Positions 35,800 to 56,873 of a DNA stretch of 64,000 nt are shown here, piece after piece. Every line of letters begins with the position of its first letter. Within the stretch, counting starts at the first letter, position 1. This DNA comes from Caldisericia bacterium (GTDB lineage Bacteria > Caldisericota > Caldisericia > JAAYUI01), in NCBI GenBank assembly GCA_963674785.1, contig OY771555.1, positions 1,728,001 through 1,792,000 of the forward strand, given 5' to 3'. The notes under the pieces are model-generated. The model worked only from the letters and a program-made list of their open reading frames with translations, ran no database searches and was not told the DNA's origin. Both the position numbers and the translations under genes were made by a program.

Positions 35800-37188
35800 A
35801 TGTTTGGCTTAATTGAAAAAGTATTATCAAAATCAGTCGGATTTTGCGAGATCAGGGTACAAGATCGAACTCGAAGGTCGGTATCTGTTAGAAACGGGAT
35901 GCTCAATAATGCAAATGTTATAATCTCGGCCGGTGTCGGAATAAGAGTCTTAAGAAGAGGATGCTGGGGTTTTGCGTCAACTTCTAAACTTGATGAAGAG
36001 AGCATGCTTGATGTCTTGAGACAGGCAGAGATTGCCGCACTCCGAATGTCTGAAATGACAAAAAAAAGAGTACCTGAACTAGATGACAGCAAAAATATCA
36101 GTCTTGACTGGATACCTGATAAAACATCAAATTCGAATTCTGTTCCAATTGACGAAAAAATAAAACTTGCCCTTTCAATTGAAGAAAAAATAAGAAACTC
36201 ATCAAAACTCATTACAAATTCAACAACTGTGTTTGATGAACTCATCGACGAAAAGTGGATAATGACAACCGAAGACGTAAAGGTTCACTACGCACTCCCA
36301 AAACCACAGTTTTACACAATGGCTGTTGCTACAAAAAATGGTGAAATGACAAGGTCAATGCAGGCAATTGGCATCATGGGTGGAGTGGACGAAATGTTTT
36401 CTGAAAGCTCCCCTGAAGCAATGGCTGAAAAAACTGCAAAACTTGCTGTTGATAAATTTGATGCACCATACGCAAAAGGCGGAATGTCAACTGTTGTTTT
36501 AAGTCCAGGCATGGTTGGACTTCTCGCTCACGAGGCCATCGGTCATACGGTAGAGGCCGATTTTGTGATGTCTGGGTCAGCAGCGTCTGGAAAAATTGGT
36601 GAAAAAGTTGCGAGTGAAAAGGTAACACTTGCAGACGCAGGATTAAACCCACTCAAAAATGGTTATCCAGCAGGAACAATCCCTGTTGATGATGAAGGGG
36701 TTGAGGTTCAAGATACAATAATAATCAAAGACGGAATCATGAACTCGTATCTTCACAATAGGGAATCTGCAGCCGAATTCGGAGTAGAGCCAACCGGAAA
36801 TGCGAGAGCATTTTCTCACTCCGACACTCCAATCATAAGAATGAGAAATACATATGTGAAACCTGGAACATCATCATTTGATGAGATAATCAGTTCAACA
36901 AAAGAAGGCTATTATCTTGTCCTCCCAGGAAACGGGCAGGCGGATGCCAACGCTGAATTCATGTTTGGATGCAGCGAAGTCTACGAAATCAAAGACGGTA
37001 AAATTGGAAACCTTATTAAAAATGCAACGATTTCAGGACAAGCGTTTGAGGTTTTAAAATCTGTTGATATGGTTGGAAACGATTTCAAATGGGATCTTGG
37101 TTCAGGTTTCTGTGGCAAAGGCCAGGCAGCAAAAGTTGATGGTGGCGGCCCAACTATCAGATGTAAAGCAATGATTGGAGGAAGATAA
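35800..37188 (+). CDS. tldD: TldD metalloprotease
   Basis: HEAIGHTVEAD, DDEG, TGNAR, RMRNT, CGKGQ. Confidence 0.93.
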   Translation: MFGLIEKVLSKSVGFCEIRVQDRTRRSVSVRNGMLNNANVIISAGVGIRVLRRGCWGFASTSKLDEESMLDVLRQAEIAALRMSEMTKKRVPELDDSKNISLDWIPDKTSNSNSVPIDEKIKLALSIEEKIRNSSKLITNSTTVFDELIDEKWIMTTEDVKVHYALPKPQFYTMAVATKNGEMTRSMQAIGIMGGVDEMFSESSPEAMAEKTAKLAVDKFDAPYAKGGMSTVVLSPGMVGLLAHEAIGHTVEADFVMSGSAASGKIGEKVASEKVTLADAGLNPLKNGYPAGTIPVDDEGVEVQDTIIIKDGIMNSYLHNRESAAEFGVEPTGNARAFSHSDTPIIRMRNTYVKPGTSSFDEIISSTKEGYYLVLPGNGQADANAEFMFGCSEVYEIKDGKIGNLIKNATISGQAFEVLKSVDMVGNDFKWDLGSGFCGKGQAAKVDGGGPTIRCKAMIGGR

Positions 37189-38522
37189 TGAGAATCAAAA
37201 TGAGAGCAAGGCAGGCACTTGAATCTGCATTATCAAAAAAATTATCCTCCGCAGAAATCATAATGACCGATAGAAAAACAATCTCAATTGAGCTTCAGGA
37301 TAATTCTGTTCATGTAGCGACCGAAGACACTTCCGAGTGGACAGGAATCCGAGCCTTCAAGGGAAACTCTCTTGGTTTCTCAGCAGTCAATAGTTTGAAG
37401 GAAGACCGAATAAATGGTGCTATTGAGGAAGCTGTAAAAATCGCAAGCGTAGCACCACCTGACAAGTCAAATGTATTGCCCGAACCAGAGGTGATCCCCT
37501 GGGTAAAAGGTATGTATGATAAAGAGCTTGCATCAATGTCTCTTGACGAGTCTATCGGGATTGCAAAAAAAATCATCGAAACATGCAAGAATTACGACAA
37601 AAGAGTGAGTCTTGACTCGGGATCATTCCAGGTAATCGTATCAAATGTTGCGATCGCCTCATCCACAGGGATTGAAGCTTCAACAAGACAAAGCTTTGCT
37701 TTCTACGACATCATGGGAATGGCAAGAGATGGCGATGTGGTTTCATCATTTGATATTGAATACGGTGGAACACGAAAAATATCAGAAATTGACGTTGAAA
37801 CATCAGCGAAAAGACTCAGCGAAAAAGTGGTTTCATCACTTGGTGCAAAGTCAGGAAAATCATTCACAGGTCAGGTTATTCTTCAGGGGGATGCCGCAAA
37901 TGAATTGCTTTTATCTCCTCTGCTTTGGTCATCGTATGCTGAAAACATTCAGCTAGGATCATCAAGATTTAAAGGTAAACTCGGCAAAAGGGTAGCCTCA
38001 AGCAAACTCACAATAAAAGACTGGGGAAGAGCACCCGGACTTGTGGCGTCATACCCATTTGACAGAGAAGGGATTCCACCAAAAAGATTGTTCCCAATAC
38101 ATAATGGAATCTTTACTGATGTCTTCCACAACGCAAAAAGTGCTGCAAGAGATGGATCTGTTTCCAACGGTCATGCCGGTGGAAGCGGAAGCTCTACACC
38201 AAACATCACAACCTCAAATGTTTTTGTTAAACCTGGTAATGCAACACTTGATGATATTATCGCTGACACAAAACTTGGCATATTAGTCGGAAGGTACAGT
38301 GGGGATATTGATCCGAGTTCAGGAGATTTCAGTGGGTCTGTTAAAGGTGGGTATCTGATTGAAAATGGAAGAAAAACGCAGCCACTTCTTGGGACAATGA
38401 TTGCCGGAAACATATACGACTGTATCCAAAACATCTCAGCTATCTCATCTGACACCGTCTCGCTCATTGATGTTTTCATGCCAAGTATAAGGCTTGAAGG
38501 AGTGACGGTCTCTTCTAAATGA
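37188..38522 (+). CDS. pmbA: PmbA/TldE
   Basis: FDREG, SNGHA, SGDFS, no HExxH; follows tldD. Confidence 0.88.
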   Translation: MRIKMRARQALESALSKKLSSAEIIMTDRKTISIELQDNSVHVATEDTSEWTGIRAFKGNSLGFSAVNSLKEDRINGAIEEAVKIASVAPPDKSNVLPEPEVIPWVKGMYDKELASMSLDESIGIAKKIIETCKNYDKRVSLDSGSFQVIVSNVAIASSTGIEASTRQSFAFYDIMGMARDGDVVSSFDIEYGGTRKISEIDVETSAKRLSEKVVSSLGAKSGKSFTGQVILQGDAANELLLSPLLWSSYAENIQLGSSRFKGKLGKRVASSKLTIKDWGRAPGLVASYPFDREGIPPKRLFPIHNGIFTDVFHNAKSAARDGSVSNGHAGGSGSSTPNITTSNVFVKPGNATLDDIIADTKLGILVGRYSGDIDPSSGDFSGSVKGGYLIENGRKTQPLLGTMIAGNIYDCIQNISAISSDTVSLIDVFMPSIRLEGVTVSSK

Positions 38523-39634
38523 GTTTAACTGCCGACAAGATTCTTCCATCAACTGCAACTGTGGATTTTGATCACCTGCAATCAAATGTCGGATTGATAA
38601 GAAGAATTACAAAAAATTCAAAGATAATGGCAGTTGTAAAGGCAAATGCTTATGGTCACGGCATAGTTCCAATCGCCAGAGCTCTTATTTCCTTCGGGGT
38701 TGAACATCTTGCAGTTCAAACACCAGAGGAGGCAATTGGACTCAGGATGGCGGGGATAACTGCTCCAATTTTGATCTTTGGATATACTCACGCTGCATAT
38801 GCAGCCGATATTATTCATCATGACCTGACACCAACCATTTTTGATTATGAGTTAGCTGTTTCTCTAAACCATCTTGCTCATAAAAACATTCCAATTCATA
38901 TCAAAATTGATACTGGAATGGGTTGGGCTGGCGTTGGCACGAGTGATGCTATTCCATTTATAAATCGCATTAATAAACTCGCCAATATCGAAATCAAAGG
39001 ACTATTTACACATTTTGCAGCAGCAGGCACTGATCCAATATTTACAAAAAAACAGGGAGACGAGTTTATTTCTCTTGTTTCAAAGATTAAAGAGAATGAA
39101 CACATTAACCCAGTACTTCATGCCTGTAATTCCACTGGAACAATGAATTTTCCTGAGTATCACTTTGATTACGTAAGACCGGGTCTAATGCTTTATGGAG
39201 TGGCACCAGGTGGAAAATATGACTCAGAGCTTTTGCCTGTTCTTTCATGGACATCATTAATATGCAACATGAAGGTTGTCCACCCAGGGGAATCCATTGG
39301 GTACGAACGAAGCTATAAAGCCGATAAAACCATGGTCGTTGGAACAATCCCAGTTGGTTATGCTGATGGCTGGAATTGGCGACTGAAAAACGACGGCCAG
39401 GTACTTATCTCAGGGAAAAGGGTTCCAATTATTGGTAGAATCTGTATGGATCAATTTATGGTTGATCTCACAGAGATAACATCTGCTGAAATTGGAACTG
39501 CAGTTACTCTTATTGGCAGCGACAATCAAGAAGAAATAACTGCATCTGAGCTTGCAAATATCGCTGGTACAATTCCATACGAAATCTTGACTTCATTGGG
39601 TAGTCGAATTAAGTTTAAATACAGAAAAAACTGA
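38519..39634 (+). CDS. alr: Alanine racemase
   Basis: AVVKANAYGHG, HIKIDTGM, VGYADG, GRICMDQ, TIPYE. Confidence 0.96.
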   Translation: MSLTADKILPSTATVDFDHLQSNVGLIRRITKNSKIMAVVKANAYGHGIVPIARALISFGVEHLAVQTPEEAIGLRMAGITAPILIFGYTHAAYAADIIHHDLTPTIFDYELAVSLNHLAHKNIPIHIKIDTGMGWAGVGTSDAIPFINRINKLANIEIKGLFTHFAAAGTDPIFTKKQGDEFISLVSKIKENEHINPVLHACNSTGTMNFPEYHFDYVRPGLMLYGVAPGGKYDSELLPVLSWTSLICNMKVVHPGESIGYERSYKADKTMVVGTIPVGYADGWNWRLKNDGQVLISGKRVPIIGRICMDQFMVDLTEITSAEIGTAVTLIGSDNQEEITASELANIAGTIPYEILTSLGSRIKFKYRKN

Positions 39635-39647
39635 AAGGATGCTTAAT

Positions 39648-41975
39648 ATGAGAAAGCTGTTACCTTTTTTCCTCGCAATAATGTTGCTTATGTCGATGGT
39701 ACCAGTATTTGCATTGTCAACAAGTCTCACAACAGATGATTTCAAACCATCTCGTAAACTTCTTGTTGAAATGTTCCTGGAACCCGAATGAACCAAATGC
39801 CCACCTACTGTTAGTAGGTTAAAAGAATTAGAAGAAGAATATGGCACAGACAAGTTTTTTAAACTGAGGCTTCATTCAAACCCAAAAGACTCCTTTTTTG
39901 TCGAGGACATAGGAGATAGGTCAGAGTTTTACGAGCAGAAATCCTTTCCAACCATGGCATACAATGGAGTTGATTTGGTAAGACTTGCTCAATCAGGCGA
40001 AGAGGTTGATAAATCTGCTGACAAAGCACTTGCTAATCCAGTTGTTTATGGATCAAGCCTAGATTGCAAGCTAAGAGAAACTCCAACTGGGAATCTCCTT
40101 GAGGTCTATGGTCAACTTGAACAGATCAATCCCGGCTCAAAGGTGAACTTAAAGTATGTCTTCTTTTTGTATGAAGACTATCTTGAATTTGAAGAAGAAC
40201 ATACATTGCACATGACAAGGGCAATATCCCCATCCGCAAAAGGCTCTTCGATCAGAGTCACTCAGGGTGAGGTGACAAACGTAAAAAAAGAGTTCTCGCT
40301 TGATGTAATCGAAGTCGAAGAGAATGTTGGTGTGCTTTTTGCGGTTTTTGACGCTGACTCCAATGAGATTTACACTTATTCTCACTGGACTTTGCGCTCA
40401 CCACACATTGTAAAAGCAATTTCAAAGAAGCATTCACCAGAAAAACCAATCACATGTGAATTTGATATCGACATCGACCCTGAAACATTTTCTGAAAACA
40501 CAGTCCTTTGTGTCAGCTCAATCGGAAGACCTGTTAAGGGAACATACAATGTTTCTGGCAAGAAATGTTCATTCACGCCAAACGACCCTCTGAAGAAGGG
40601 AAGCGAATACGGTTTCTACCTTAAGGGTGGCAAAGACGGCATAACCTCGACAACTGACGTTGTGATGGACAATAATTTGGTTTGTTCCTTCATAGCTGAA
40701 GAATCTGAAGAGGCAATTCTTGAGATCGCAACTGAAGAGCTTGATTTTGGAAAACTGAGCGAACCAAGAGCACAAAAGGTTGAAATCAAAAACACCGGTA
40801 ATGCAAAGCTTGAGGGTAAAGCTGCAGTCGGAATGACATGGCTTAAGGTTGATCCTATGTCAATCAGTATCGATCCGGGTAAATCCATTGAGATGAATGT
40901 CACAATCAATCCCGCTGATCTCAAAGAGGGATTCCACAACTGCAACATAATTATCACAACCAATGGTGGAGATCATACAATTCCAGTTTCATTCCAATAT
41001 ATTCCAATTGCTGCTGAACTCAAAGTTTCCCCTGAGACGCTAGATTTTGGACAGGTTACTGTCAGCAAATCAAAATCAATGAAGCTGATGTTTACTGCGG
41101 ATGACACCGTTAAAGGAACAATTTCTGCAACAGAAGGTTGGATATCAGTTAATAAAGAATCATTTGAGTTTGCAAATGGTGAGATTGAAGTAATAGTAAA
41201 ACCAACAAAAGTTGATGATCTCAAAGGTGAGCTTCACATCGAATCAAATGGTGGAAACTTCACGATCCTTGTAACTGTTTCATGTGTACCTGAGGCTTCA
41301 ATTGAACTTGTGTCTGAAACATCAAACCCAACAACAAACGATCAAGCAGAACTGGTAATCAAGCTTGTTCCAACAGACAAAAAATTCAACCTATATCTCA
41401 ATGGTAAACTAGTTCAGGAAAATGTTGAAACAGCAGCAAATGGTGAGATGAGGCTTTATGTTGATATCACCCCAGGAAACAACACATTTAAGGTTGAATC
41501 AATAGGAACAGATGAAATTGTCACAGATGAAATCTCAATTACAAAACAGATAATCCTTCAGCTCTGGATTGGCAAGACAAACTATACTATTAACGGACAG
41601 ACTCTCACTCTTGATGTCGCTCCAACAGTTTCTTCCCCGCCACTTCCTGCTGAACTCAAAGACAATACCTACATGCCAATTCGTGCTGTTGCTGAGGCTT
41701 TGGGAGCCGAGGTTGGTTGGGTCGGAGCTGAAAAGAAAGTCACCCTCACACAAAAAAAGGCAGACGGAAGTACTAATTTCATTGAGCTCTGGATCAATAA
41801 AAAGACGGCAAAGGTTAATGGTGTTGAGACAAAACTTAATGATGCAGGCACACTTTATCCTGCAATCGTTTCCGATCGAACAATGCTCCCATTGAGGTTT
41901 GTTGCCAATAATCTTGGAGCAGAAGTAGGATGGGATGGAGCTGAAAGAAAGATAACCCTTACTTATCCAAAATAA
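39648..41975 (+). CDS. Predicted exported selenoprotein (~775 aa): signal peptide, UxxC thioredoxin/Omp28-like domain, Ig-like domains, C-terminal copper-amine-oxidase-N (stalk) domain
   Basis: AAAGGA RBS and ATG 39648 in frame with ORF 39954; only interruption is TGA 39789-39791 in LLVEMFLEPE-U-TKCP; hairpin 11 nt downstream; C-terminal YMPIRAVAEALGAEVGW and MLPLRFVANNLGAEVGW. Confidence 0.82.
39803..39819 (+). promoter_or_regulatory. Candidate bacterial SECIS element
   Basis: ACCTACT-GTT-AGTAGGT, a perfect 7-bp stem starting 11 nt 3' of the in-frame TGA, with G in the loop. Confidence 0.7.
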
Positions 41976-42001
41976 CCTTCATTCTCTTATAACTAAACAC
42001 C

Positions 42002-42039
42002 AAAAAGCCACCACTTAAAAATGGTGGCTTTTTTCTTTT
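42002..42039 (+). terminator. Intrinsic terminator
   Basis: AAAAAGCCACCA-loop-TGGTGGCTTTTTT then a T-tract. Confidence 0.85.
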
Positions 42040-42063
42040 TAGAATCTTTGTACAATCTTTTCC

Positions 42064-42816
42064 ATGAGCAAACTAGAGGCAGTAATTCTTGGTGGCGGTG
42101 GAATTGAAGAGTGGTTTGAACATGAACATGTGTCAAACAAAGGCATGTTAATATTAAATGGCAAACCAATGATAAGTTACTCTATTTCAGCCCTCAAAGA
42201 TATTGCAAACATAAACAAGATAACACTTATTGGTGACGGATACTCCAAAGAAGTCATCAATTCAGTAGATAGAAATATTTCAGATCATGGTTCACTTCCG
42301 GGTAATATTGATGCTGCATTTGAAAACGCAAACTCTGATTATGTTTTGATGATGATGTCAGATGTTCCGCTTATTACATCAGAAACCATCAGAGAGGTAT
42401 TAGCAACCATTCCTTGGGAGTCACATGATCTTTCACTTCCTGTTGTAACAAAAGAAGAGACTGAAAATAAGTTTCCAGGCACAAAAAGAACATTTGCAAA
42501 AACAAAAGAAGGTCATGTCAAAGTTGGAAATGTTTTCATCCTGAAAAAAGATGCATATTCAAAAATTCAGCCAATTGTAAAAGAAACAGCAAAAAGAAGA
42601 AAGTCTGTCATCAAACAGGCACTTCAACTCGGATTTGGATTCTTGTTCAGAATGATTGTTTTCAAAAACATCTCTATTCCCGAACTTAAAAAAAGAGTTG
42701 AAAAGATGCTTGGAATCACAGTAAACGCTGATATAGTTCCATTCCCCGAGCTTGGCGTAGATGTTGATAAAACATCTGATTTAGTTTTTTGCAGACAGAT
42801 TTTGGAGAGACATTAA
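42064..42816 (+). CDS. MobA-like NTP transferase family protein
   Basis: AVILGGG, NKG...NGKPMI, SDVPL, VDVDK..D. Confidence 0.78.
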   Translation: MSKLEAVILGGGGIEEWFEHEHVSNKGMLILNGKPMISYSISALKDIANINKITLIGDGYSKEVINSVDRNISDHGSLPGNIDAAFENANSDYVLMMMSDVPLITSETIREVLATIPWESHDLSLPVVTKEETENKFPGTKRTFAKTKEGHVKVGNVFILKKDAYSKIQPIVKETAKRRKSVIKQALQLGFGFLFRMIVFKNISIPELKKRVEKMLGITVNADIVPFPELGVDVDKTSDLVFCRQILERH

Positions 42817-43623
42817 ATGGGTTATTTAGAAGCAGTAGTTTTAGGTTTTATTCAGGGCGCGACAGAATTCCTTCCGATTTCATCAAGTGGTCATCTTACA
42901 ATTTTCCCTGCTCTTTTTGGCTGGCAACAACCCTCACTGTCATTTGATATTTTTGTTCACGCAGGCACCTTGGTAGCAGTACTGATATATTTCTGGGCAG
43001 ATATTGCAAAATACTTTAAGGCTCTGTTTGTTGGATTAGGTAACTTTTTCAAAAAAGAAGAAGTCTCAACTGATTCAAAAATCGCATTCTATATTGTTCT
43101 TTCGTTTATCCCCGCTGCAATTCTTGGTTATCTGCTTGAATCAAGAATAGAACTTCTTATCAATTCTCCGAAACTAGTTTCATATTTTTTCCTTGTTACA
43201 GCAGGACTTCTCATACTTGCAACCGTATTGAAGGGAAAAAAAGAGATAACAGGCATCAATTGGCTTGATGCAATTTTTATTGGTTTTGCTCAAGCTATTG
43301 CCTTGATACCAGGTGTTTCAAGGTCAGGAACATCAATAACAGCTGGAAGAATTATGGGAATGACACGTGAAGCATCCGCAAGATTTGCATTCTTGATTGC
43401 AGTCCCAGCAATAGCTGGTGGATTCCTTTATCATATGTACAAAGCAGTATTTAAGATTGGTTTTGTTATCGATTTGGGGCCGTCACTGGTCGGATTTGCA
43501 GTTGCAGCAGTCATCGGCTGGCTTTCAATATATATGTTCTTCAAGATTCTTAAAACCGCGGGATTCGAGCCATACATTGTATACCTGATAATACTCTTTG
43601 TAGTCCTTCAAATCGTGCTATGA
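42817..43623 (+). CDS. uppP: Undecaprenyl-diphosphatase
   Basis: QGATEFLPISSSGH, PGVSRSG. Confidence 0.95.
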   Translation: MGYLEAVVLGFIQGATEFLPISSSGHLTIFPALFGWQQPSLSFDIFVHAGTLVAVLIYFWADIAKYFKALFVGLGNFFKKEEVSTDSKIAFYIVLSFIPAAILGYLLESRIELLINSPKLVSYFFLVTAGLLILATVLKGKKEITGINWLDAIFIGFAQAIALIPGVSRSGTSITAGRIMGMTREASARFAFLIAVPAIAGGFLYHMYKAVFKIGFVIDLGPSLVGFAVAAVIGWLSIYMFFKILKTAGFEPYIVYLIILFVVLQIVL

Positions 43624-45902
43624 AACCTGAGGTCATAAGACCTTTAATAAAAGAAGAACTTTCTCTAAATTGCAATAATAAATCAGTTGGCATCGGTTTC
43701 GATAATTTTGTCATTGCAAACATTGATAAAATTGCAAAAGAATCGATTGCTCAGAAGTACAAAAACGCTTTCAGAAAATACAAAGATTTGAAGGTCATCG
43801 AAAGAAAAACCCTTGTCAATCACCTTTTGACCTATGTAGAGAGACTTCAAAACAAACAAAAGATCGCAAAACCAGTTTTTAGATACAATCTGGATGATCC
43901 TCTGACCAAAATTACTGGTATTGGAAATCAATCGAAGGCAAAGCTTTCCCAGATCGGGATCAATACAATCTATGATGTTTTGAGGTATATCCCATCCAAA
44001 TATATCGACCTGACCAAAATAAAAAAAATCTCGGAACTTGAGTATGGTGAAACATCAACAGTAATCGCAAAACTCTCTGACATGAAAGCATCAAACAGAA
44101 GAACAAAAACCATTAGCACAATTTTTTCTGATAAATCTGGTTCTTTTAGGGTAACATTTTTTAATTCACCCTGGCTTACTGGCAAACTGAAAATTGGAGA
44201 AACATATACGATATCGGGGCTTGTTGGAGATTTTTGTGGCCCACAGATGACAAATCCTGAGGTAAGAGATGGAAGGAACGAAGGATATATCGAACCTGTT
44301 TATCCAGCATCGAAAGAACTCAAACAATGGGTTTTCAAAAGAATCTTTAAAAATATCGAAAATCATTTCCCACAAATCACCAACAGCATTCTCCCGAAAA
44401 AGCTGATAACAGAGAACAAACTAACAAATATTGAATCGGCATACAGGGGTGTTCACTACCCAAAAACAATTGTAGAAGCGGAGGTTTCAAGAAACAGACT
44501 AGCGATTGAAGAGTTAATTTTACTTGAAACTGCACTCATCAAAAAGCGTGCATTCTTCAAAGCAAAACCAGGAATAGTTATCGAAAAAGCATCTGAGAAC
44601 GCAAAGAGATTCATAAAAAAGCTTCCTTTTACACCAACATATGCCCAATCAAGATGTATTAGTGAAATTTCAACTGACATCGAATCCGGAAAACCCATGA
44701 ATAGACTTCTTCACGGAGATGTCGGTTCCGGAAAAACAATCGTCGGTTTGTCGGCAATAAATTCTGCCACTAAAGCAGGATATCAAACTGCATGGATTGC
44801 ACCAACTGAAGTTCTAGCATCACAAACCTATAAAAATGCAAATGAACTCCTTTCCTGTGAAGTTGCTTACCTTTCGGGTTCTACAAAGAAATCAGAACGT
44901 GCGAAAATAAAAGAGTTATTGGAATCTGAAAAACCTTGTCTATTAATTGGAACACATGCTGTGCTTGAGGATTGGGTACAACTCCCAAATCTCGGACTAG
45001 CAGTAATCGATGAACAACACCGGTTTGGTGTTTTGCAACGATCAAGATTATCAAAAAAGGGTAAGTTCCCTCATATTCTTGTTATGAGTGCAACACCAAT
45101 CCCAAGAACGCTTGCAATGACTCTTTATGGTGATCTTGATGTTTCAGTTGTTGATGAAATGCCTGCGAACAGAAAGCCTATCAAAACTAAGGTTTTCCTA
45201 GAACAAAAAAGAGTTCGGGTTTACCAAAATGCAATAAATGAAATCAAAAATGGAAGGCAGGTTTACATTGTCTGTCCACTTGTTGAGGAATCAGCAAAGA
45301 TTGAAGCAGTTTCTGCGACCGAACTATTTGAAGAACTGCAAAAAACTCATTTCAAGGACTTCAAATGTGGATTATTGCATGGTCGAATGAAAAATACCGA
45401 CAAAACAAGCATTATGGAACGATTTAAATCTGGGGAGATTGATGTCTTGATTTCAACAACCGTAATTGAAGTTGGGGTTGACGTTCCAAATGCAACTGTC
45501 ATGATCATCCAAAATGCAGAAAGATTCGGGCTTGCACAGCTTCACCAACTTAGGGGAAGAGTCGGAAGAGGTGACCATCAATCATACTGTTTCTTGATAC
45601 CTTCTAAACCATCAAGAGCTTTAACTATCCTTGAATCAACAAACGATGGTCTCAGGGTCGCAGAAGAAGACCTGAAGATAAGAGGACCAGGAGAGATTGG
45701 AGGAACGTTACAGTCTGGAGCACCACTATTTGACTCAAGACTCATAACACCATCAAACCTAAGTTTGTTACCAAAAGCAAGAGAAATTGCAGAATCTATA
45801 ATTGACAAAGACCCAAATCTCTGTGATAAAGAAAATCAAAACATGAAACAAGAGATAAAAAAGAGATTTGAAAGCAAGGTGAAACTTGTTTGGGTGAGTT
45901 AA
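43620..45902 (+). CDS. recG: ATP-dependent DNA helicase RecG
   Basis: GDVGSGKT, DEQHRFG, SATPIPRTL, LHQLRGRVGRG, DLKIRGPGE. Confidence 0.95.
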   Translation: MKPEVIRPLIKEELSLNCNNKSVGIGFDNFVIANIDKIAKESIAQKYKNAFRKYKDLKVIERKTLVNHLLTYVERLQNKQKIAKPVFRYNLDDPLTKITGIGNQSKAKLSQIGINTIYDVLRYIPSKYIDLTKIKKISELEYGETSTVIAKLSDMKASNRRTKTISTIFSDKSGSFRVTFFNSPWLTGKLKIGETYTISGLVGDFCGPQMTNPEVRDGRNEGYIEPVYPASKELKQWVFKRIFKNIENHFPQITNSILPKKLITENKLTNIESAYRGVHYPKTIVEAEVSRNRLAIEELILLETALIKKRAFFKAKPGIVIEKASENAKRFIKKLPFTPTYAQSRCISEISTDIESGKPMNRLLHGDVGSGKTIVGLSAINSATKAGYQTAWIAPTEVLASQTYKNANELLSCEVAYLSGSTKKSERAKIKELLESEKPCLLIGTHAVLEDWVQLPNLGLAVIDEQHRFGVLQRSRLSKKGKFPHILVMSATPIPRTLAMTLYGDLDVSVVDEMPANRKPIKTKVFLEQKRVRVYQNAINEIKNGRQVYIVCPLVEESAKIEAVSATELFEELQKTHFKDFKCGLLHGRMKNTDKTSIMERFKSGEIDVLISTTVIEVGVDVPNATVMIIQNAERFGLAQLHQLRGRVGRGDHQSYCFLIPSKPSRALTILESTNDGLRVAEEDLKIRGPGEIGGTLQSGAPLFDSRLITPSNLSLLPKAREIAESIIDKDPNLCDKENQNMKQEIKKRFESKVKLVWVS

Positions 45903-45903
45903 T

Positions 45904-47799
45904 ATGGGTCAGATATTTGTTGATAAGATTACAAAATTTTTTGGTGTAGACCAGCTTTTTGATGAAGCATCATTTACTGTCGGTAGCACTGATAGATTCG
46001 GGCTTGTTGGGCCAAATGGTTCTGGCAAGACCACTCTTTTGAGAATAATAATGGGTAAACTTGAATGTGAAAGTGGTTCGGTTTCTTTTGAAGGAAAGTC
46101 AGAAATTGGATATTTTGCCCAAAACAGAGCAATCGATATCTCTGAGGAATCCGTGATGGACTTCATGAGAAAAGGATTTTCAGAGATTATTGATATCTGG
46201 GACAATCTATTAAGAACAACACATGAGCTTGAAGAAAATCCTCACGTTGAAGTTCTGATAGACAAACTCAGCAAACTGCAAACAGAGTTTGATGCAAAAA
46301 ACGGATTCGAAATTGACCACCGAATAAACAGGATTCTGATGGGTTTAGGTTTCACCGAAAAAGATTGGACAAGACCAATTTCGAGCCTGTCAGGAGGAGA
46401 AAGAAGCAGAATTCAGCTTTCACAGGTGCTTGCATTCAACCCCGATACTCTGATTCTTGACGAACCTACAAACCACCTCGACCTTAAATCTGTCATGTGG
46501 CTTGAAGACTATCTCTCAGAATACAAAGGTTCTGTTTTGATTATTTCACACGATAGATTTCTTTTAGATAGAATTTGCACAAAGATAGGCTTCATTGAGA
46601 ACAAAAAGATCAAGGTTTTCAGAGGAAACTATACATTTGCAAAAGAGCAAAACGAGATAGAAAAACACCTTCAGGAAGAAGAGGCTTTAAAGCAACAGGA
46701 GTTTCTTGAAAAAGCAAAAAGATACATTGCAAAATTCAAAAGAATTGGGACACCCAAAGCAACCGCAAAAGCCAAACAGATGGAAGCAAGGGTCAAAAGA
46801 ATGGTTCTTGTTGAAGAACCAACAAAAGAAAAAGACATAAAGCTCCGAATTGAATCCACTGGAAGGACAGGCGAAGTTGTCTTTAAGACAACTGAACTTG
46901 GTATGTCTTTTGGCGAAAAGAAGCTTTTTTCAAACACAAACCTTGAACTCAAACGTGGTCAGAAGGTCGCACTTATTGGTTTGAATGGTACCGGCAAAAC
47001 AACCTTTCTAAAAATGGTGCTTGGAAAAATCAAACCTACTGAAGGTGAGATTTGGGATGGATACAGTGTACTTCCAACATACCTTGAGCAGGAACTTGCA
47101 TCCTTTGACAAAGACAATTCTGTGCTTGATGAGATAATGAAAGATACAGAACTTCACATCCCGGAAGCCAGGAACCATCTTGCAAAATTTGATTTTACAG
47201 GAGATGAGGTTTTCAAAAAATGTGGAGTCCTCAGTGGCGGTGAGATTTCCAGGCTCATCTTGTCAAAACTTGCACTCATAGAGTCAAATTTCCTTATCAT
47301 GGATGAACCTACAAACCATCTCGATATAAAAGCAAGAACAGCCATCGAAGATACTCTCAAGGACTACAATGGCACAATTCTAATTGTTTCTCATGACAGA
47401 TACTTCATCAGTCAGATTGGGGCAAGAATTTGGGATTTGAGTGATGGACAAATAACAGACACAAAGCTCATACTTGAAGAATACCTCTCTTATAAAAGCA
47501 AACCCGTTAAGCAAGAAACTGATTACACCCCCAAAAAAGTCGAACCAGAAAAAGTAGAAAAACCAAAGACGTCAAAACTATCGAAGAACAAGATCAGAGA
47601 GATTGAAGAGAAAATTGGGAACATTGAAGAGAAGCTTTCAAGTATCGCAGAAGAGAAAAAAGAACTTGAAAGACACATGGCTGGAGAAACAGACTACCAG
47701 ATGGGACAGGATGATTTCAAACGCTATACCGAGTTAAATGAGAACGAATCGGAGCTACTCCATAAATGGGAGGAGCTTTCAGAGCTTTTAAATAAGTAG
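45904..47799 (+). CDS. ABC-F family ATPase
   Basis: Two ABC domains (GPNGSGKT, LSGGE, LDEPTNHLD), no TM segments, coiled-coil tail. Confidence 0.92.
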   Translation: MGQIFVDKITKFFGVDQLFDEASFTVGSTDRFGLVGPNGSGKTTLLRIIMGKLECESGSVSFEGKSEIGYFAQNRAIDISEESVMDFMRKGFSEIIDIWDNLLRTTHELEENPHVEVLIDKLSKLQTEFDAKNGFEIDHRINRILMGLGFTEKDWTRPISSLSGGERSRIQLSQVLAFNPDTLILDEPTNHLDLKSVMWLEDYLSEYKGSVLIISHDRFLLDRICTKIGFIENKKIKVFRGNYTFAKEQNEIEKHLQEEEALKQQEFLEKAKRYIAKFKRIGTPKATAKAKQMEARVKRMVLVEEPTKEKDIKLRIESTGRTGEVVFKTTELGMSFGEKKLFSNTNLELKRGQKVALIGLNGTGKTTFLKMVLGKIKPTEGEIWDGYSVLPTYLEQELASFDKDNSVLDEIMKDTELHIPEARNHLAKFDFTGDEVFKKCGVLSGGEISRLILSKLALIESNFLIMDEPTNHLDIKARTAIEDTLKDYNGTILIVSHDRYFISQIGARIWDLSDGQITDTKLILEEYLSYKSKPVKQETDYTPKKVEPEKVEKPKTSKLSKNKIREIEEKIGNIEEKLSSIAEEKKELERHMAGETDYQMGQDDFKRYTELNENESELLHKWEELSELLNK

Positions 47800-50169: not shown

Positions 50170-52737
50170 ATGAGTTTATTCAAGTCGATCTTTGATTCGT
50201 CAGAGAAATTTTTGAAGAAGGCTAGACCTATTGTTGTAAAGATTAATGCTATGGAACCGGAATTTGAGGCAATGAATGACGATGACCTCAAGTCCAAAGC
50301 AAATGACCTAAGATTGCAGATTTCAAATGGAGAAAAGCTAGACAATATCCTAGTTCCATCATTTGCTCTTGTCAGGGAAGCAGCACGAAGAACCCTGAAT
50401 CAAAGACCATTTGACACACAGTTGATTGGTGGGATGGCACTCCATCATAGAAAAATTGCCGAAATGAAAACCGGTGAGGGTAAAACACTTGCTGCAACAT
50501 TACCGACGTTCCTAAACGCATTAACTGGAAAAGGTGTCCATGTTGTGACTGTCAATGATTACCTTGCAAGTCGTGATGCCGAGTGGATGGGTAAAGTTTA
50601 TTCGTTCCTTGGGATGACGGTTGGCAATATTGAAAGTGATGCCTCTTATGATACGAGAAGAGAGGCTTACAGATGCGATATCACATATGGTACAAACAAC
50701 GAGTTTGGATTTGATTATCTCAGAGACAACATGGCAAGAGACCCAAGCCAGCTTGTTCAAAGAGAACTTCACTATGCAATCGTCGACGAAGTTGACAGTA
50801 TTCTCGTTGATGAAGCAAGAACTCCACTCATTATTTCAGGGCCTGCTGAAAAATCTACTGATCTCTACTACACTGCAGCAAAAGTTGTCAAACAGCTGAA
50901 AGAAGAAGACTACACACTCGATGAAAAAAACAGAAATGTAACTCTCACTCAAGATGGTGTCCATCATGTAGAAAAAATATTGAATGTCACGAACCTCTAT
51001 GGTCAAGAGAATGTCGAGATAAACCGGCATGTAACTCAATCACTCAAAGCACACAGGTTATTTAAAGGTGATGTTGACTACATTGTCAAAGATGGTGAAA
51101 TTGTAATTGTTGATGAATTCACCGGAAGGTTGATGTTCGGAAGAAGATACAGTGACGGACTCCACCAGGCAATTGAAGCAAAAGAAAACCTTGAGGTCAG
51201 ACAGGAAAACCAGACACTCGCAACGATCACATTCCAGAACTATTTCAGAATGTATGAAAAACTCTCCGGAATGACAGGTACAGCAAAAACCGAAGAGAAT
51301 GAATTCAGGGAGATTTATGGGCTTGAAGTTGTTGTTGTCCCAACAAATAGACCAATTGCAAGAATCGATCACCCCGATGTTATATGGAAAAATGAGGCTT
51401 CAAAGTTTAAAAACATCATCAATGAAGTCGAAGGTTGCTACAAAAAGGGTCAACCAGTTCTTGTTGGTACAAGATCAATTGAAAAATCTGAGGAGCTTTC
51501 AAAAGCACTTAGAAAAAAAAGTATCCCCCATGAAGTTCTGAATGCAAAATACCATGAAAAAGAAGCACAGATCATCGCTAAAGCTGGTGAAGTAAATGCT
51601 GTTACCATCGCTACAAATATGGCGGGTAGAGGTGTTGATATTGCGCTTGCAGAAGGCGTTAAAGAGCGCGGGGGACTGCACATCATAGGAACCGAAAGAC
51701 ACGATTCCCGTAGAATCGATAATCAGCTTCGAGGACGTTCTGGAAGACAGGGAGACCCCGGTGGATCTAGGTTCCATCTCGCTCTTGATGATGAGCTTTT
51801 AAGGATTTTCGGTGGCGAGAGACTGCAAAGCCTCTTTGAATTCCTGAAAATCGACGAGGATGTTCCACTAGAACACCCAATGCTCACAAGAACAATTGAA
51901 AATTCTCAAAAAAAGGTAGAGGCAAGAAACTTTGATACCAGAAAATATGTTCTTGAATACGACGATGTTTTAAATAGACAAAGAGAAATTGTCTACGCAC
52001 AACGTCAAAGAGTACTCCATGGTGAAGACCTCCAAGATACGGTTCTTGATAAAATAAGCGTTGTTGTATCTGACATCTTAAACAGACACGCATCAACTGA
52101 ACTCATTCCTGAGGAATGGGACTTGAAAGCCCTCAAGTCAGAGGTTATGGATCTGACCGCTGGAAGGGTTGAAGATATTAGTTTCAGTGACAGAGGATCT
52201 CTAATCTACAATCTGACCCAAAGAATTCTTGAAGAGTACAAAAAGCGTGAAGAGGAATTTGGCGAAGAGACCATGCGCAACATGGAAAGATATGTTCTTC
52301 TCTATGTTGTTGATAACAAATGGAAAGACCACCTGTACAGCATGGATAACCTCCGCGAGGGAATTGGACTCCGTGGATATGGTCAAAAGAATCCCATCCA
52401 GGAATACCAGAATGAAGGATTTGCAATATTCAATGAAATGCTTGCGAGCATCTGGGACGATACCATCAAGTATCTCTTCAGATTCAGACTTCAACCAACT
52501 GCAAGACAAGAGCAACAACAAACACAAACAAATCAAGACAAGATCAAACAAGCTCAGAGAACAAGTGACATCCGACCCGAAAGAGAGAGGGTTTCAGGAA
52601 GAGCTGTCCCATCAAAAGGTGGCGGTCACAACACAAAACAGCCAATCAAACGCAGCTCTGAAAAAGTCGGTCGAAACGACCCTTGTCCATGTGGTTCAGG
52701 AAAAAAATACAAACAATGTTGTGGAAAGAATAGGTAA
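50170..52737 (+). CDS. secA: Preprotein translocase ATPase SecA
   Basis: [25 protein letters not shown] motif [13 protein letters not shown]. Confidence 0.98.
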
Positions 52738-53808: not shown

Positions 53809-54910
53809 ATGCTTGATGACGAACTAATTAGACAACACACGAAGGTTTGGACCAGATATGGTCAGGCCAAGGAGTTTCTTTGACCATCTGATTCCAAAAA
53901 GGGATGAGCTTCAAGAAGAGCTTGAAAAACCAGAGCTTTGGTCTGATCCTGAAAAGGCTTCAAAACTCAACAAAGAACTGACATTTATCAAAGGGCGTTT
54001 GGGTGAAGTTGAAGATGTCAAAAAGATACTTGATGAGTCTGATGTTTTACTTGAATTCTCAAGAGAAGAGGATTCTTCAATTGCTGATCTCAGAGACTCC
54101 ATAAATAAAGCAAATGATCTTTTAGAGTCAATTGAGCTAAAGAATCTTATGTCTGGTCGATTTGACCAGGGCAATGCTTTCTTATCGTTTTCAGCAGGAG
54201 CTGGAGGAGTTGACGCTCAGGACTGGACAGAGATGCTCATCAGAATGTACACAAGATGGGCAACCGAACACGGATACCATGTGAAGGTTACCGATAGGTC
54301 GGTTGGTGATGAAGCTGGAATAAAATCCGCTACACTCTACATTGAGGGCGAATATGCCTTTGGATTCCTTAAAAGCGAAAAGGGTGTCCACAGACTTGTA
54401 AGGATTTCGCCATTTGATTCAAACCACAGGAGACACACATCTTTTTCGTATGTTGAAGTGTTGCCAGAAATTGCACCCGCAGAACAGATTACGATTGATC
54501 CTAAAGATTTAAGAATTGATGTTTTCAACGCATCAGGACACGGCGGACAGAACGTTCAGAAAAACGCAACGGCAGTCAGAATCACACATCTTCCAACAAA
54601 AACTGTTGTTGCCTGTCAAAATGAACGCTCACAACTCATGAACAAAAACATGGCAATGAAAGTTCTGCAATCCAGGCTTCAGAAGCTTGAGGATGAAAGA
54701 CAAGCCGCAAAAGAAAAAGATCTTCGAGGCCCAAGAGTCTCCATTGAATGGGGAAACCAAATCAGGTCTTATGTTCTTCAGCCATATACAATCGTAAAAG
54801 ACAATAGAACAGGTGTTGAGATTGGGAATGTCACAAAGGTTCTCGAAGGTGATCTTGATGCTCTCATCTGGGGTTATCTAAAGTGGAAAGCAAAAGCAGA
54901 AGCTTCATAG
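53809..54910 (+). CDS. prfB: Peptide chain release factor 2 with programmed +1 frameshift
   Basis: ATG 53809; AGGAG-ttt-CTT-TGA-C slip site at 53870-53884; SPF and GGQ motifs in the +1 frame. Confidence 0.95.
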
Positions 54911-56745
54911 TAGGAACAGCAGGTCACGTCGACCATGGTAAGTCTGAGCTGATCCATCGAATAACAAATGTCGACCCAGACAGACTACCTGAAGAAAAAG
55001 AACGAAGTATGACAATCGTGCTTGGATTTGCTCCGCTTGATCTACCATCAAGAAAAAGATGTGGTGTTGTAGATGTTCCCGGTCACGAGCGGCTTGTAAA
55101 AAGGATGCTTGTTGGAGCCGTTGGATTTGACCTTGTATTGTTCGTAATCGCCTGTGATGAAGGACCACAAAAACAGACAGAGGAACATCTGGATATCCTG
55201 AATTATCTCGGTATAAAAAATGGGATAATTGTTCTAAATAAAGCTGATTTACCTCACGATAACGAGAAACTGATGACTGATGTCGGCAATCTTTTGAAGG
55301 GCACAACCCTTGAAGGATCTGAGATTGTGAAAGTAAGCTCAATCACAGGTGAAGGGATTGGTAAGCTTTTAGAAACAATCGATGCAACTCTTGATAGAAC
55401 CACACCTAAGCCAATAGACATGCCTGTATTTATGCCAATCGACAGAAAGTTTTTTGTGAAGGGAATCGGGCTTATTGTCGGAGGCACTCTCTGGCAGGGA
55501 GAGCTGAAGATTGGCGATAAGGTAGAGATTTTCCCATCAGGCAAAAAATTCAAGATAAAATCGCTTGAAAGCTTTGAAGAGGAGCTTCAAACTGCTGATG
55601 CTGGAAACAGGTATGCCCTTAGGTTTCAAGGAATAGAAAAAGACGATATTGAAACCGGCAATATTTTGATTTCACCAAACAGATTCAAAAAATACTCTGT
55701 TTTTGATGCCAAAATCAAACTCTCCACAAAGCTAAAAAAATACACAAGACTGAAGATTCACATCGACACAATAGAACAGGAAGTCGATATTATAAGAATC
55801 GGTGATGATTACATCAGGGTAAATCTCGAAACACCTCTGCCCATCACAAGGGGTGCAAGGTTTATCCTAAGAAAAATTGCACCAAATGATACAATTGGTG
55901 GAGGGGTTGTTTTAAATCCTGCCCCAAAAACAAAGCCAAACAACCCTGATACTCTCAAGTATCTAGGCACAATATCAAATTCAAACGATGAGGATTATCT
56001 TGATGGATTTATATCCAAAAGCAGGAATGACTTTTTAAAAACAGATGAATTGAGATTTAAGGTCAATTGGTCTGATAAACGTTTTGATGATTTCATTTCA
56101 AATGGGAAATACTACAAGGTTGAAGATTTGATCATCTCAAAGGAAATATTTGATGAGACAACAAGAAAACTATCGAAAGAGATAACAAAGTATTTTTCAG
56201 AAAATAAAAGTGTTGTCGTTTTACCGGTAAACAATGCAAAGGGGAAATTTCTACCTGAGGTATCTACAAAACTTTTTACACAAGTTTTGAATTCATCAAT
56301 AAAAAAGCCCCTCACTATCGATGGTTCTAAAATTATTAATAGCTCAAAGCAAGTAAAAATGTCTCCCGTTGAAGAAAAACTTGAGAAAATGTTTTTACTA
56401 GACTTATTCTCTCCACCAAAACTTGCCCAGGTAAAAAGTGCAAAGGTTTTTTCAGGGCAAGAGAGGGAGCTGAATCATGCGATCTCTAACTTCATCACCA
56501 ATCGAGTAATCTTTAAAGCAACAAGTGAGATATATTTTCACAAAAAATCCATTATTAAGGGATTTATAGTAATGAAATCAATTATTGAGAAAAACAAATC
56601 AGCAAAACTTGCTGATTTTAGAGATAAAGCAAATACAAGCAGAAAGTACGCTCAAGCTTTCCTAGAACTTCTTGATGCCCTGGGTTTAACAAGAAGACAA
56701 GGTGACGTGAGAGTACTTGGTCCAAAAGCTGTTGACCTCAAGTAG
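54883..56745 (+). CDS. selB: Selenocysteine-specific elongation factor
   Basis: [35 protein letters not shown]-terminal winged helix TSRKYA..LE.LD; adjacent to tRNA-Sec. Confidence 0.96.
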
Positions 56746-56748
56746 ATG

Positions 56749-56767
56749 TTTGCATATCATATGCAAA
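56749..56767. repeat. Perfect 9-bp inverted repeat between selB and tRNA-Sec
   Basis: TTTGCATAT-C-ATATGCAAA. Confidence 0.7.
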
Positions 56768-56781
56768 TGACAAGTGAATTC

Positions 56782-56873
56782 GGGGGTGGTTGGGTCCTGG
56801 TGGGCCTCCTGGTCTTCAAAATCAGTGTGGGGCTGTCGTCCCGGGTAGGTTCGATTCCTATGCACTCCCGCCA
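56782..56873 (+). tRNA. selC: tRNA-Sec (TCA)
   Basis: 6-bp D-stem with TGGT loop, CTTCAAA anticodon loop, variable arm, GGTTCGATTCC, G73-CCA. Confidence 0.95.

Follow-up and report, generated by a model that had tools for sequence, protein, structure and literature searches.

The stretch of DNA analysed here, referred to throughout as the window, is 64,000 nucleotides long and forms part of a single 2.23-Mb contig (39% G+C) of a Caldisericia bacterium. Coordinates are those of this 64-kb window unless they carry the prefix G000:C1, G000 being the genome itself. At 39648..41975, on the plus strand, lies a putative selenoprotein gene of 775 codons and a stop codon, with selenocysteine (Sec, or U in the one-letter code) at codon 48 when TGA is translated as U. 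The frame is open from the ATG at 39648 to the stop at 41973-41975 and has one break, the TGA at 39789-39791 (codon 48), which stands in the context LLVEMFLEPE-U-TKC-PP. When this TGA is read as U, no further stop or frameshift is found across the 775 codons. A Shine-Dalgarno-like AAAGGA (39634..39639, plus strand), read from the sequence, is present 8 nt 5' of the ATG. The alanine racemase gene alr ends just upstream with its own TGA at 39632-39634, and since only 13 nt separate this stop from the ATG, the two genes are probably co-transcribed.

The open reading frame (ORF) list places the gene start at 39954 (Met103), in the same frame as ATG 39648. The upstream start is backed by the orthologues. 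Full-length proteins of 678-785 amino acids (aa) are read at 10/10 related loci, and at one of these (L008) a stop directly precedes the aligned Met. Residues 1-22 (MRKLLPFFLAIMLLMSMVPVFA; 39648..39713) form a putative signal peptide with the layout of the general export (Sec-type) pathway, namely a K/R-rich start, a hydrophobic core of ~17 residues and VFA before the putative cleavage site. This layout is common to 11/11 orthologues, and the AlphaFold2 (AF2) model of the N-terminal part, described below, has a helix at residues 5-24, followed by a low-confidence linker.

An initial annotation, made from the letters of the window alone, had proposed this longer frame with its single TGA, a ribosome-binding site and a signal peptide. 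The frame and the TGA are seen directly in the sequence and its translation, and the ribosome-binding site and the signal-peptide layout were likewise located. It had further expected that standard annotation would truncate the gene, which is what public records hold: the gene is split in two by every public gene call examined. Among 1.84 billion representative proteins searched, the six closest start at query residues 56-187, all past codon 48, while another, of 47 residues, covers residues 1-47 and ends right before the TGA. That stub and a 673-aa remnant are both named 'hypothetical protein', and the longest listed contig of each is 277,514 nt. For the gene in the window itself, a 673-aa version is likewise present in public records.

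Decoding of codon 48

The conservation of the TGA was followed by a six-frame search, in which the first 260 residues served as the query against 61 genomes of the class. Matches at E <= 0.001 were obtained in 26 of the 61, including all 10 other genomes of the same family, which thus comprises 11 genomes (G000-G010) in three genera. In each of these 11, the best-matching place contains exactly one in-frame TGA, and it falls at the aligned position. The identities of the TGA-bearing places are 100, 70, 63 and 53%, and then 34-37%. None of the 34 weaker places found by the same search carries a stop. The motif in the family reads EP[EGN]-U-[TA][KF]-C-[PH]; in distant homologues (18-25% identity) it is replaced by WCGWC, WCPAC and similar, whose first Cys aligns with the Sec. 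The initial annotation had placed the TGA at the first Cys of a CxxC pair, and every Cys-type homologue examined agrees with that placement. A CxxC with its first Cys in the Sec column is present in 38/38 Cys-type rows of a 49-row tree set, and the column is Cys in 11/11 Cys-type rows of a 20-sequence alignment (A2). In the tree, the 11 Sec rows form one clade with support 100/100. The TGA at 39789..39791 is accordingly annotated as U48, the first position of U-T-K-C, on the basis of the conserved TGA and the aligned Cys.

The frame is also maintained as protein on both sides of the TGA. E41, C/U48, C51, P101 and G107 are invariant in alignment A2, and V55, E64, G66, R74, S77, N78, D81, Y95, P101 and T102 are invariant among 9 orthologues. 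As residues 49-102 are conserved as protein, and as the thioredoxin fold described below spans the TGA, coding appears to continue past it. A global recoding of TGA was considered and rejected; alr, which has a full-length Pfam match, and 7/10 orthologues of the present gene terminate in TGA. In a scan of one genome per species, for which the 9 orthologues alone (alignment A3) were used, relatives were found only in 10 assemblies, titled Caldisericota, Caldisericia, Caldisericales or 'uncultured bacterium'.

A second line of evidence lies just downstream. A hairpin resembling a selenocysteine insertion sequence (SECIS), ACCTACT-GTT-AGTAGGT, is present at 39803..39819; it starts 11 nt after the TGA, as the initial annotation had stated, and its apical loop follows the TGA by 18 nt. 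For an alignment (A1), 60 nt starting at the TGA were taken from each of the 11 orthologues, which represent 9 distinct sequences. RNAalifold recovers from it a 5-bp stem (columns 16-20/26-30), of which all five pairs are formed in 11/11 sequences and four show compensatory changes on both sides. The covariation that the initial annotation had suggested looking for is thus seen. For the named 7-pair structure, 79.4% of the cells are paired; shuffled alignments give 60.7% (79.4% being reached in 0/500), and sliding the partners gives 15.9-38.1%. Covariation scores 0.579, compared with 0.219 in shuffles (again reached in 0/500) and at most 0.119 with slid partners, values to be read with the caveat that the sequences are related and the stem lies inside coding sequence. 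The loop G and U (G22 and T23, columns 22-23 of A1) are invariant in 11/11. According to a 2026 review, bacterial SECIS (bSECIS) elements have an apical loop of 3-9 nt, a stem of 4-16 bp, a G among the first two loop nucleotides and a UGA-loop distance of 16-37 nt (PMC13188914). All 11 orthologues fall within this geometry, with stems of 5-7 bp, loops of 3-5 nt (GTT, GTA, CGTGC or CGTGA) and a UGA-loop spacing of 17-18 nt. It is the occurrence at the same place, with covariation, in 11/11 orthologues that makes the hairpin significant.

The trans-acting machinery is encoded as well. The window holds selB, for the Sec-specific elongation factor (54883..56745, plus strand; Pfam GTP_EFTU, SelB-wing_3 and Beta-barrel_SelB), and tRNA-Sec with anticodon TCA (56782..56873, plus strand; found by ARAGORN, and scoring 69.5 bits with Rfam RF01852 against a gathering score of 47). 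Both had been noticed initially, and the selA and selD genes that were then to be sought are found elsewhere in the genome, selA with 533 bits and selD itself with one in-frame TGA at the catalytic position. At 53858-56873, prfB (encoding release factor 2, RF2, which reads UGA), selB and tRNA-Sec are arranged head to tail; the last 28 nt of prfB are shared with the start of selB, and tRNA-Sec lies 36 nt past selB. RF2, a competitor at UGA, and the Sec-insertion factor SelB may be co-transcribed. For the 356-codon ORF lying between secA and prfB (52737-53807, plus strand), Pfam gives no match at E <= 1e-5.

Four sequencing runs were compared with the locus, all in the form of contigs rather than reads. 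The first (X1) gave an identical contig and may be the source. Another (X3), from a different study, holds a near-identical contig over 39613-40122 with 4 differences, of which the one at 39842 is listed. An RNA library (X10) gave a 1338-nt contig, ~86% identical (145 other letters), that spans 39503-40540 and so reaches from the end of alr over the start, the TGA and the hairpin; among its differences listed, none falls at 39756-39827. DNA can occur in RNA libraries. As this may apply here and as most of the differences are unlisted, the X10 contig is counted neither as proof of the TGA nor as proof of transcription.

Taken together, the conserved TGA, the aligned Cys and the covarying hairpin make it very probable that 39648-41975 is one gene, decoded with Sec at codon 48.

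Domain architecture and structural relatives

The predicted mature protein may be pictured as a 'head on a stalk', in which a head bearing U48-T-K-C51 would be followed by four immunoglobulin (Ig)-like domains and a C-terminal Cu_amine_oxidN1 domain. The head comprises a thioredoxin-fold domain (residues ~36-130; 39753..40037) and, packed on it, an Omp28-type beta-sandwich (residues ~134-248; 40047..40391). Both were recognized from structure matches of an AF2 model of residues 1-260, built on alignment A2, with a mean predicted local distance difference test (pLDDT) of 86.5 and a predicted TM-score (pTM) of 0.80. The model has the thioredoxin order of elements, beta-alpha-beta-alpha-beta-beta-alpha. 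In it a strand at 38-43 leads to U48-x-x-C51, which sits ahead of a helix at 51-65, and P101 stands ahead of a strand at 102-105. The tripeptide FPT at residues 100-102, which the initial annotation had assigned to the cis-Pro loop, supplies the cis-Pro candidate, and its P101 is the residue found invariant in A2.

Against thioredoxins, the head aligns with Z 10.5-12.8 over 82-89 residues. The match to HBP35 of Porphyromonas gingivalis (5y1a) extends over 214 residues, with Z 23.9, a root-mean-square deviation (rmsd) of 2.5 Å, a Foldseek E of 7.3e-13 and a profile E of 1.8e-12. The DUF1223 structure 2axo is matched with Z 17.6 over 198 residues, and the sandwich alone matches the Omp28 domain 2r2c_B with Z 14.1 and rmsd 1.7 Å over 100 residues. 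Distant Cys homologues of the head match Omp28 (PF11551), DUF1223 (PF06764) and Thioredoxin in Pfam. The head, as modelled, is thus a thioredoxin fold joined to a beta-sandwich, a two-domain unit of the HBP35/Omp28/DUF1223 type, in keeping with the thioredoxin/Omp28-like head first proposed.

The stalk was delimited with a full-length model built from 9 orthologues (pTM 0.44), which was used for its domain boundaries only. Ig-like domain 1 (residues 261-336; 40428..40655) is of the Big_5 or SbsA type (PF13205, E 2.3e-8) and is all-beta in the model, with pLDDT ~85-93. Ig-like domain 2 (residues 356-447; 40713..40988) is BACON_2, HYDIN-VesB-like or choice-of-anchor D (PF19190, E 7.8e-12; PF22544, E 1e-9); its match to NCBIfam NF012200, at E 4.4e-8, is under the cut-off of that model. 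Ig-like domain 3 (residues 457-548; 41016..41291) resembles DUF5717_N weakly, at E 1.3e-5 and with 23.7 bits where 25 would be needed, and is also all-beta, at pLDDT ~88-92. The fourth beta-sandwich domain (residues ~570-643; 41355..41576) weakly matches DUF4397 (E 3.3e-4, under the cut-off), and strands are modelled in this region at 551-640. The C-terminal Cu_amine_oxidN1 domain (residues 669-770; 41652..41957) scores 97.7 bits with PF07833 against a gathering threshold of 24.2. It is the most conserved part of the selenoprotein among the orthologues, and the SSPPLP linker before it is invariant. The Ig repeats and the copper-amine-oxidase-N domain of the first proposal are thereby found in Pfam as Big_5, BACON_2 and Cu_amine_oxidN1. 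In genus g3 the orthologues are 678 aa long, ~100 aa shorter overall.

HBP35 is the known protein to which this architecture can best be compared. Both have the two-domain head, and the active-site pair is numbered 48 and 51 in both; the N-terminal signal peptide of HBP35 and its C-terminal sorting or anchoring module for surface display have putative counterparts in the selenoprotein. From this identical numbering it follows that the signal peptide and its spacing to the active site (39789-39800 in the window, compared with 5y1a) are equally long in two phyla. The differences are also clear. HBP35 has Cys where the present protein has Sec, and the sequence identity is ~15%. Its anchor consists of a type IX secretion C-terminal domain and A-LPS (A-lipopolysaccharide) of the Bacteroidota outer membrane, whereas the selenoprotein has four Ig-like domains and Cu_amine_oxidN1 in a Caldisericota envelope. 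Recombinant HBP35 has been reported to reduce insulin faster than E. coli thioredoxin, its C48S/C51S mutant being inactive, and a modified form of the protein sits on the cell surface (PMC2907840).

The Omp28 lipoproteins (PF11551, NF033782; 2r2c) and DUF1223 (PF06764; 2axo) share the sandwich and whole-head structure matches, but the selenoprotein differs from them in having no lipoprotein Cys, in carrying Sec instead of Cys and in scoring under the family cut-offs. Likewise, the Sec-containing thioredoxin-fold enzymes (Trx, Grx, DsbA-like, DsbG-like, TlpA-like and thiol:disulfide interchange protein) have UxxC in place of CxxC at the N-terminus of helix 1, and several of them are predicted to be extracytoplasmic (PMC13188914). 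They are, however, small single-domain or membrane-tethered proteins, unlike this multi-domain protein of 775 residues with a putative wall anchor, and the Trp that usually precedes CxxC is replaced in the selenoprotein by E-P-[EGN].

The initial annotation had regarded an exported selenoprotein as unusual, and this was overstated. In the 2026 review by Zhang and co-workers, 119 families of prokaryotic selenoproteins are tabulated. Many of them are thioredoxin-fold UxxC proteins and many are predicted to be extracytoplasmic; the latter include DsbA-like, DsbG-like and TlpA-like proteins, a TonB-dependent receptor, an outer-membrane beta-barrel and substrate-binding proteins (PMC13188914). Among them is 'Hypothetical protein GOS_C', which is NF045500, named 'Omp28-related selenoprotein' by NCBI (PMC13188914). 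Zhang and Gladyshev described GOS_C in 2008 as a UxxC protein with a Trx-like fold, represented by 74 Sec sequences and by 312 homologues with Cys; its function is given as unknown and is thought to be thiol-based redox (PMC2398784). With GOS_C already catalogued, the present protein has a precedent in kind, as a UxxC selenoprotein of the Omp28 type. The table of 119 families does not include the present family (PMC13188914). A full-text search of a limited collection found no paper on Caldisericota selenoproteins, and no relevant one on Omp28 with selenocysteine or DUF1223 with selenoprotein.

Export, function and rival explanations

The Cu_amine_oxidN1 domain bears on the location of the protein. 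The genome (2.23 Mb) holds 148 matches to this domain, most of them at the C-termini of open frames 400 to 4600 codons long, and on account of this number and position it would be the organism's general module for secreted proteins. Surfaceome analysis of Desulfotomaculum reducens has yielded proteins with this domain, and its authors describe the domain as frequent among cell-wall hydrolases (PMC4137172). In this Caldisericales lineage it seems to serve as a general surface-anchoring module of secreted proteins. The selenoprotein is considered probably exported and envelope-associated, at a lower confidence than its decoding.

With respect to redox supply, the genome has one CcdA/DsbD-type membrane electron carrier, which adjoins a membrane-anchored thioredoxin. 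That locus (L036; G000:C1:373135-376761) holds, in a row, the only CcdA/DsbD-type gene, the membrane-anchored thioredoxin (VCIPCK; G000:C1 ~375.3-375.7 kb) and a PQQ-like propeller ending in Cu_amine_oxidN1, and it may encode a reducing pathway that acts outside the cytoplasm. Searches of the genome, which is 92% complete, found neither DsbB nor VKOR. Because the carrier and the membrane thioredoxin are present and DsbB and VKOR were not found, a reducing direction is slightly favoured for the U48/C51 pair.

A working sequence of events may be proposed. SelB and Sec-tRNA(Sec) would recognise the GU-loop hairpin 12-13 nt past UGA-48 and insert Sec, as conservation and covariation suggest. The N-terminal signal peptide would then route the chain through the Sec translocon, and Cu_amine_oxidN1 would probably hold the mature protein on the cell envelope. 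There, by analogy with HBP35, U48/C51 would probably carry out selenol/thiol-disulfide exchange at the cell surface, more likely as a reductase. The reading of 39648-41975 as a whole, a Sec-decoded, exported and envelope-held surface oxidoreductase, is given a probability of about 0.7, a figure weighted to its first two steps, decoding and export.

Several points weigh against this reading or against parts of it. The organism is known from metagenome assemblies only. The upper hairpin alone has a minimum free energy (MFE) of -3.7 to -7.1 kcal/mol, and 0/11 orthologues reach the bSECIS stability threshold of -7.5 kcal/mol; over 60 nt, the MFE is -6.5 to -16.5 and 10/11 do reach it, by means of outer pairs that are not conserved. 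As a comparable hairpin occurs at 241/5000 random positions of the genome, the hairpin of any one sequence is weak evidence. The signal peptide is called from its n/h/c layout as judged by eye, and that Cu_amine_oxidN1 acts as an envelope anchor in this organism is likewise something we infer. The head matches no Pfam family at E <= 1, and it scores 28.9 bits with NF033782, for which the cut-off is 150. Its confident model depends on the addition of distant Cys homologues; in the full-length model, pLDDT is <50 at residues 44-51 and 76-115, around the active site. As for function, the physiological role of the HBP35 thioredoxin activity is given as unknown in the study that describes it, and its hemin binding maps to residues 135-344 with no need for the cysteines (PMC2907840).

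How far other explanations account for the same facts can now be considered. If the TGA were a true stop, the locus would encode a 47-residue peptide from 39648 and a separate 673-residue protein from ATG 39954 without a signal peptide. That is how gene callers read it, and the weakness of the hairpin on its own could be cited in support, as could HBP35, which also gives shorter cytoplasmic forms of 29 and 27 kDa (PMC2907840). A stop here would, however, halve the thioredoxin-fold core even though its downstream residues are conserved in 9 orthologues, and it would interrupt a position through which the Cys homologues run continuously. It would also leave the TGA, frame and hairpin preserved in 11/11 genomes down to 34% identity, and the 673-aa product with Ig domains and a surface anchor yet no export signal; termination at codon 48 is very improbable. 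The idea of a pseudogene or an assembly error, with a nonsense mutation or a miscalled base in a former CxxC gene, is scarcely credible. Only the in-frame stop itself speaks for it, against which stand the same TGA in 11 genomes of three genera (the 10 related loci coming from separately named assemblies), the otherwise intact frame, the near-identical X3 contig of a different study and a flanking gene order kept in 10/10 relatives. It is also highly unlikely that the protein is an ordinary member of NF045500. The two share a superfamily fold and UxxC at the same active-site position, with a weak match over residues 35-116, but the score is 17.4 bits for a cut-off of 200, and 0/61 Caldisericia genomes hold a match over the cut-off in a six-frame search. 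The Sec orthologues score 27.9-34.8 bits, below several Cys paralogues (up to 59.6), and the Sec clade sits among Caldisericia Cys paralogues with support 94/93 in a tree drawn open. The architectures differ, a model of 377 positions as against 775 aa with an Ig stalk and Cu_amine_oxidN1, and so do the sources: GOS_C came from marine samples, whereas the assemblies related to the present one carry digester- or bioreactor-like isolate names. As judged from the score with the NF045500 profile, the 49-row tree and the architecture, the family is distinct from NF045500. Since the scores and the tree point that way, Sec was probably recruited independently in the ancestor of one Caldisericales family.

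The remaining alternative accepts a Sec-decoded, exported protein but lets the U48/C51 pair bind or carry a ligand at the cell surface, whether a soft metal or metalloid (Hg, Cu, As), sulfur or polysulfide, selenium or haem. HBP35 gives some ground for it, as it is a hemin-binding protein that the cells require for growth under hemin limitation (PMC2907840). UxxC and CxxC pairs also serve as metal sites, and an HMA protein of the same genome has U-P-A-C with its TGA kept in 4/4 genomes of its genus. Furthermore, no reductant is evident for a head held off the membrane, and the superfamily-conserved sandwich residues E176 and R191 suggest a ligand pocket common to both domains. The hemin binding of HBP35 survives the C48S/C51S change, however, and is thus not via CxxC (PMC2907840). 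The invariant E41, CxxC column, P101 and G107 are hallmarks of thiol-disulfide exchange, and a CcdA-thioredoxin reductive pathway is encoded in the genome. A binding role is on balance unlikely; it stays the main rival because no route of re-reduction is evident for a head on a long stalk. The assignment of U48/C51 as a thiol-disulfide oxidoreductase rather than a binding protein, made by analogy, is accordingly held with a little more confidence than doubt. Nothing that the initial annotation had named as refuting its proposal was found.

Gene neighbourhood, further candidates and implications

The order tldD-like, pmbA-like, alr, selenoprotein, MobA-like nucleotidyltransferase and uppP is the one kept in 10/10 relatives. 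Across them the selenoprotein diverges faster (34-70% identity) than alr (58-75%). In the window, eight genes lie on the plus strand at 35800-47799 with ends touching or overlapping, namely two TldD/PmbA-like genes, alr, the selenoprotein gene, the MobA-like gene, uppP, recG and an ABC-F ATPase gene; alr and uppP are cell-wall genes. A terminator-like hairpin and T-run (42002..42033, plus strand) was matched by a consensus scan 27 nt past the stop codon of the selenoprotein gene, with 12 pairs (5 G-C) followed by TTTTTTCTTTTT.

Across Caldisericia, the HBP35/Omp28-like head module occurs in multiple copies. In the present genome, paralogues of the head with Cys (WCGYC, WCQYC and WCINC) are found in three other large proteins, of 996, 1894 and 1745 codons (minus strand; G000:C1:1233102-1233818, 1282742-1283020 and 1638314-1638715), and each of these frames also holds a Cu_amine_oxidN1 match. 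Two of the three have repeat regions before the head that we take, by eye, to be NHL-like.

Other candidate selenoproteins were picked from a genome scan for TGA plus hairpin, which returned 152 sites, mostly in non-coding frames, and was used only to choose five candidates. A codon-usage scan for the selenoproteome was discarded, as it missed the gene at 39648-41975 itself. One of the five, at 2155963, proved to be a genuine stop, with an acyl-CoA dehydrogenase gene on one side and an ArsC-like gene on the other. In-frame TGA together with a GU-loop hairpin is found in three further genes (L039, L037 and L040).

The first of these, L039 (G000:C1:541155-541736, plus strand; TGA 541302), encodes a small secreted protein of ~175 aa in which the signal peptide is followed by GTYG-U-GSGGG-C, a poly-Pro/Ala stretch and a beta-rich domain; no Pfam family was found for it. 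The hairpin GGTTGC-GTT-GCAGCC starts 12 nt past the TGA. Exactly one TGA is present in 8/8 full-length or near-full-length matches within the family, and a ninth, partial match (query 97-172, G007) has no stop. L039 is a candidate new exported selenoprotein.

The second, L037 (G000:C1:1492931-1495003, plus strand; TGA 1493975), is a PQQ/BamB-like beta-propeller of 690 codons. Its TGA stands in VGT-U-DKHIYCLSG, where the other blades have GS[YFDSWA]D, hence not at a Cys position. The hairpin TACTGCCT-GTC-AGGCAGTA lies 12 nt past the TGA. The best matches have one TGA each in G003, G002, G005, G006 and G008, and a TGA and a TAA in G001; these TGAs may correspond to that of L037, but orthology is uncertain among many paralogues. 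A second PQQ-like propeller, L038 (G000:C1:1075352-1076509, plus strand; TGA 1075718), has 385 codons, a signal-peptide-like start, VNS-U-TTFKMLCLSG and a hairpin, CTGTGCCT-GTC-AGGCACAG, near-identical to that of L037. No orthologue was found at E <= 1e-50 in 12 relatives, a threshold that may be too strict, and L038 is an unverified candidate.

The HMA protein mentioned above, L040 (G000:C1:2137741-2138154, plus strand; TGA 2137780), is HMA/CopZ-like and has two modules. The first carries KRCM-U-PAC, a UxxC where CxxC would bind metal, and the second an ordinary CEVC. All 4 genomes of the genus keep the TGA. The protein has known relatives among metal-binding selenoproteins, scoring 56 bits with NF041115, below the cut-off of 95.

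Since other conserved-TGA genes exist in the genomes of the family, several selenoproteins outside the cytoplasm are suggested. It may tentatively be proposed that the family possesses a lineage-specific set of extracytoplasmic selenoproteins, of which the 39648-41975 product is the wall-anchored member. If true, these cells would carry out selenol chemistry within the envelope or on their surface, with extracellular disulfides, sulfur or polysulfide, or metal(loid)s as examples of what it might act on, and no selenoenzyme before this product would have been presented on an anchor in the cell wall.

The gene would thus represent a new selenoprotein family from the uncultured phylum Caldisericota, with an unusual architecture for surface display. 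A profile allowing U at the CxxC position could let annotation pipelines recover the split gene. The poorly understood HBP35/Omp28/DUF1223 superfamily would gain a second, independent Sec branch, and a second Sec-containing branch in turn speaks for a catalytic redox role of the CxxC in this module. As for the organisms themselves, it would seem that certain bacteria of anaerobic digesters invest selenium in proteins exposed outside the cell.

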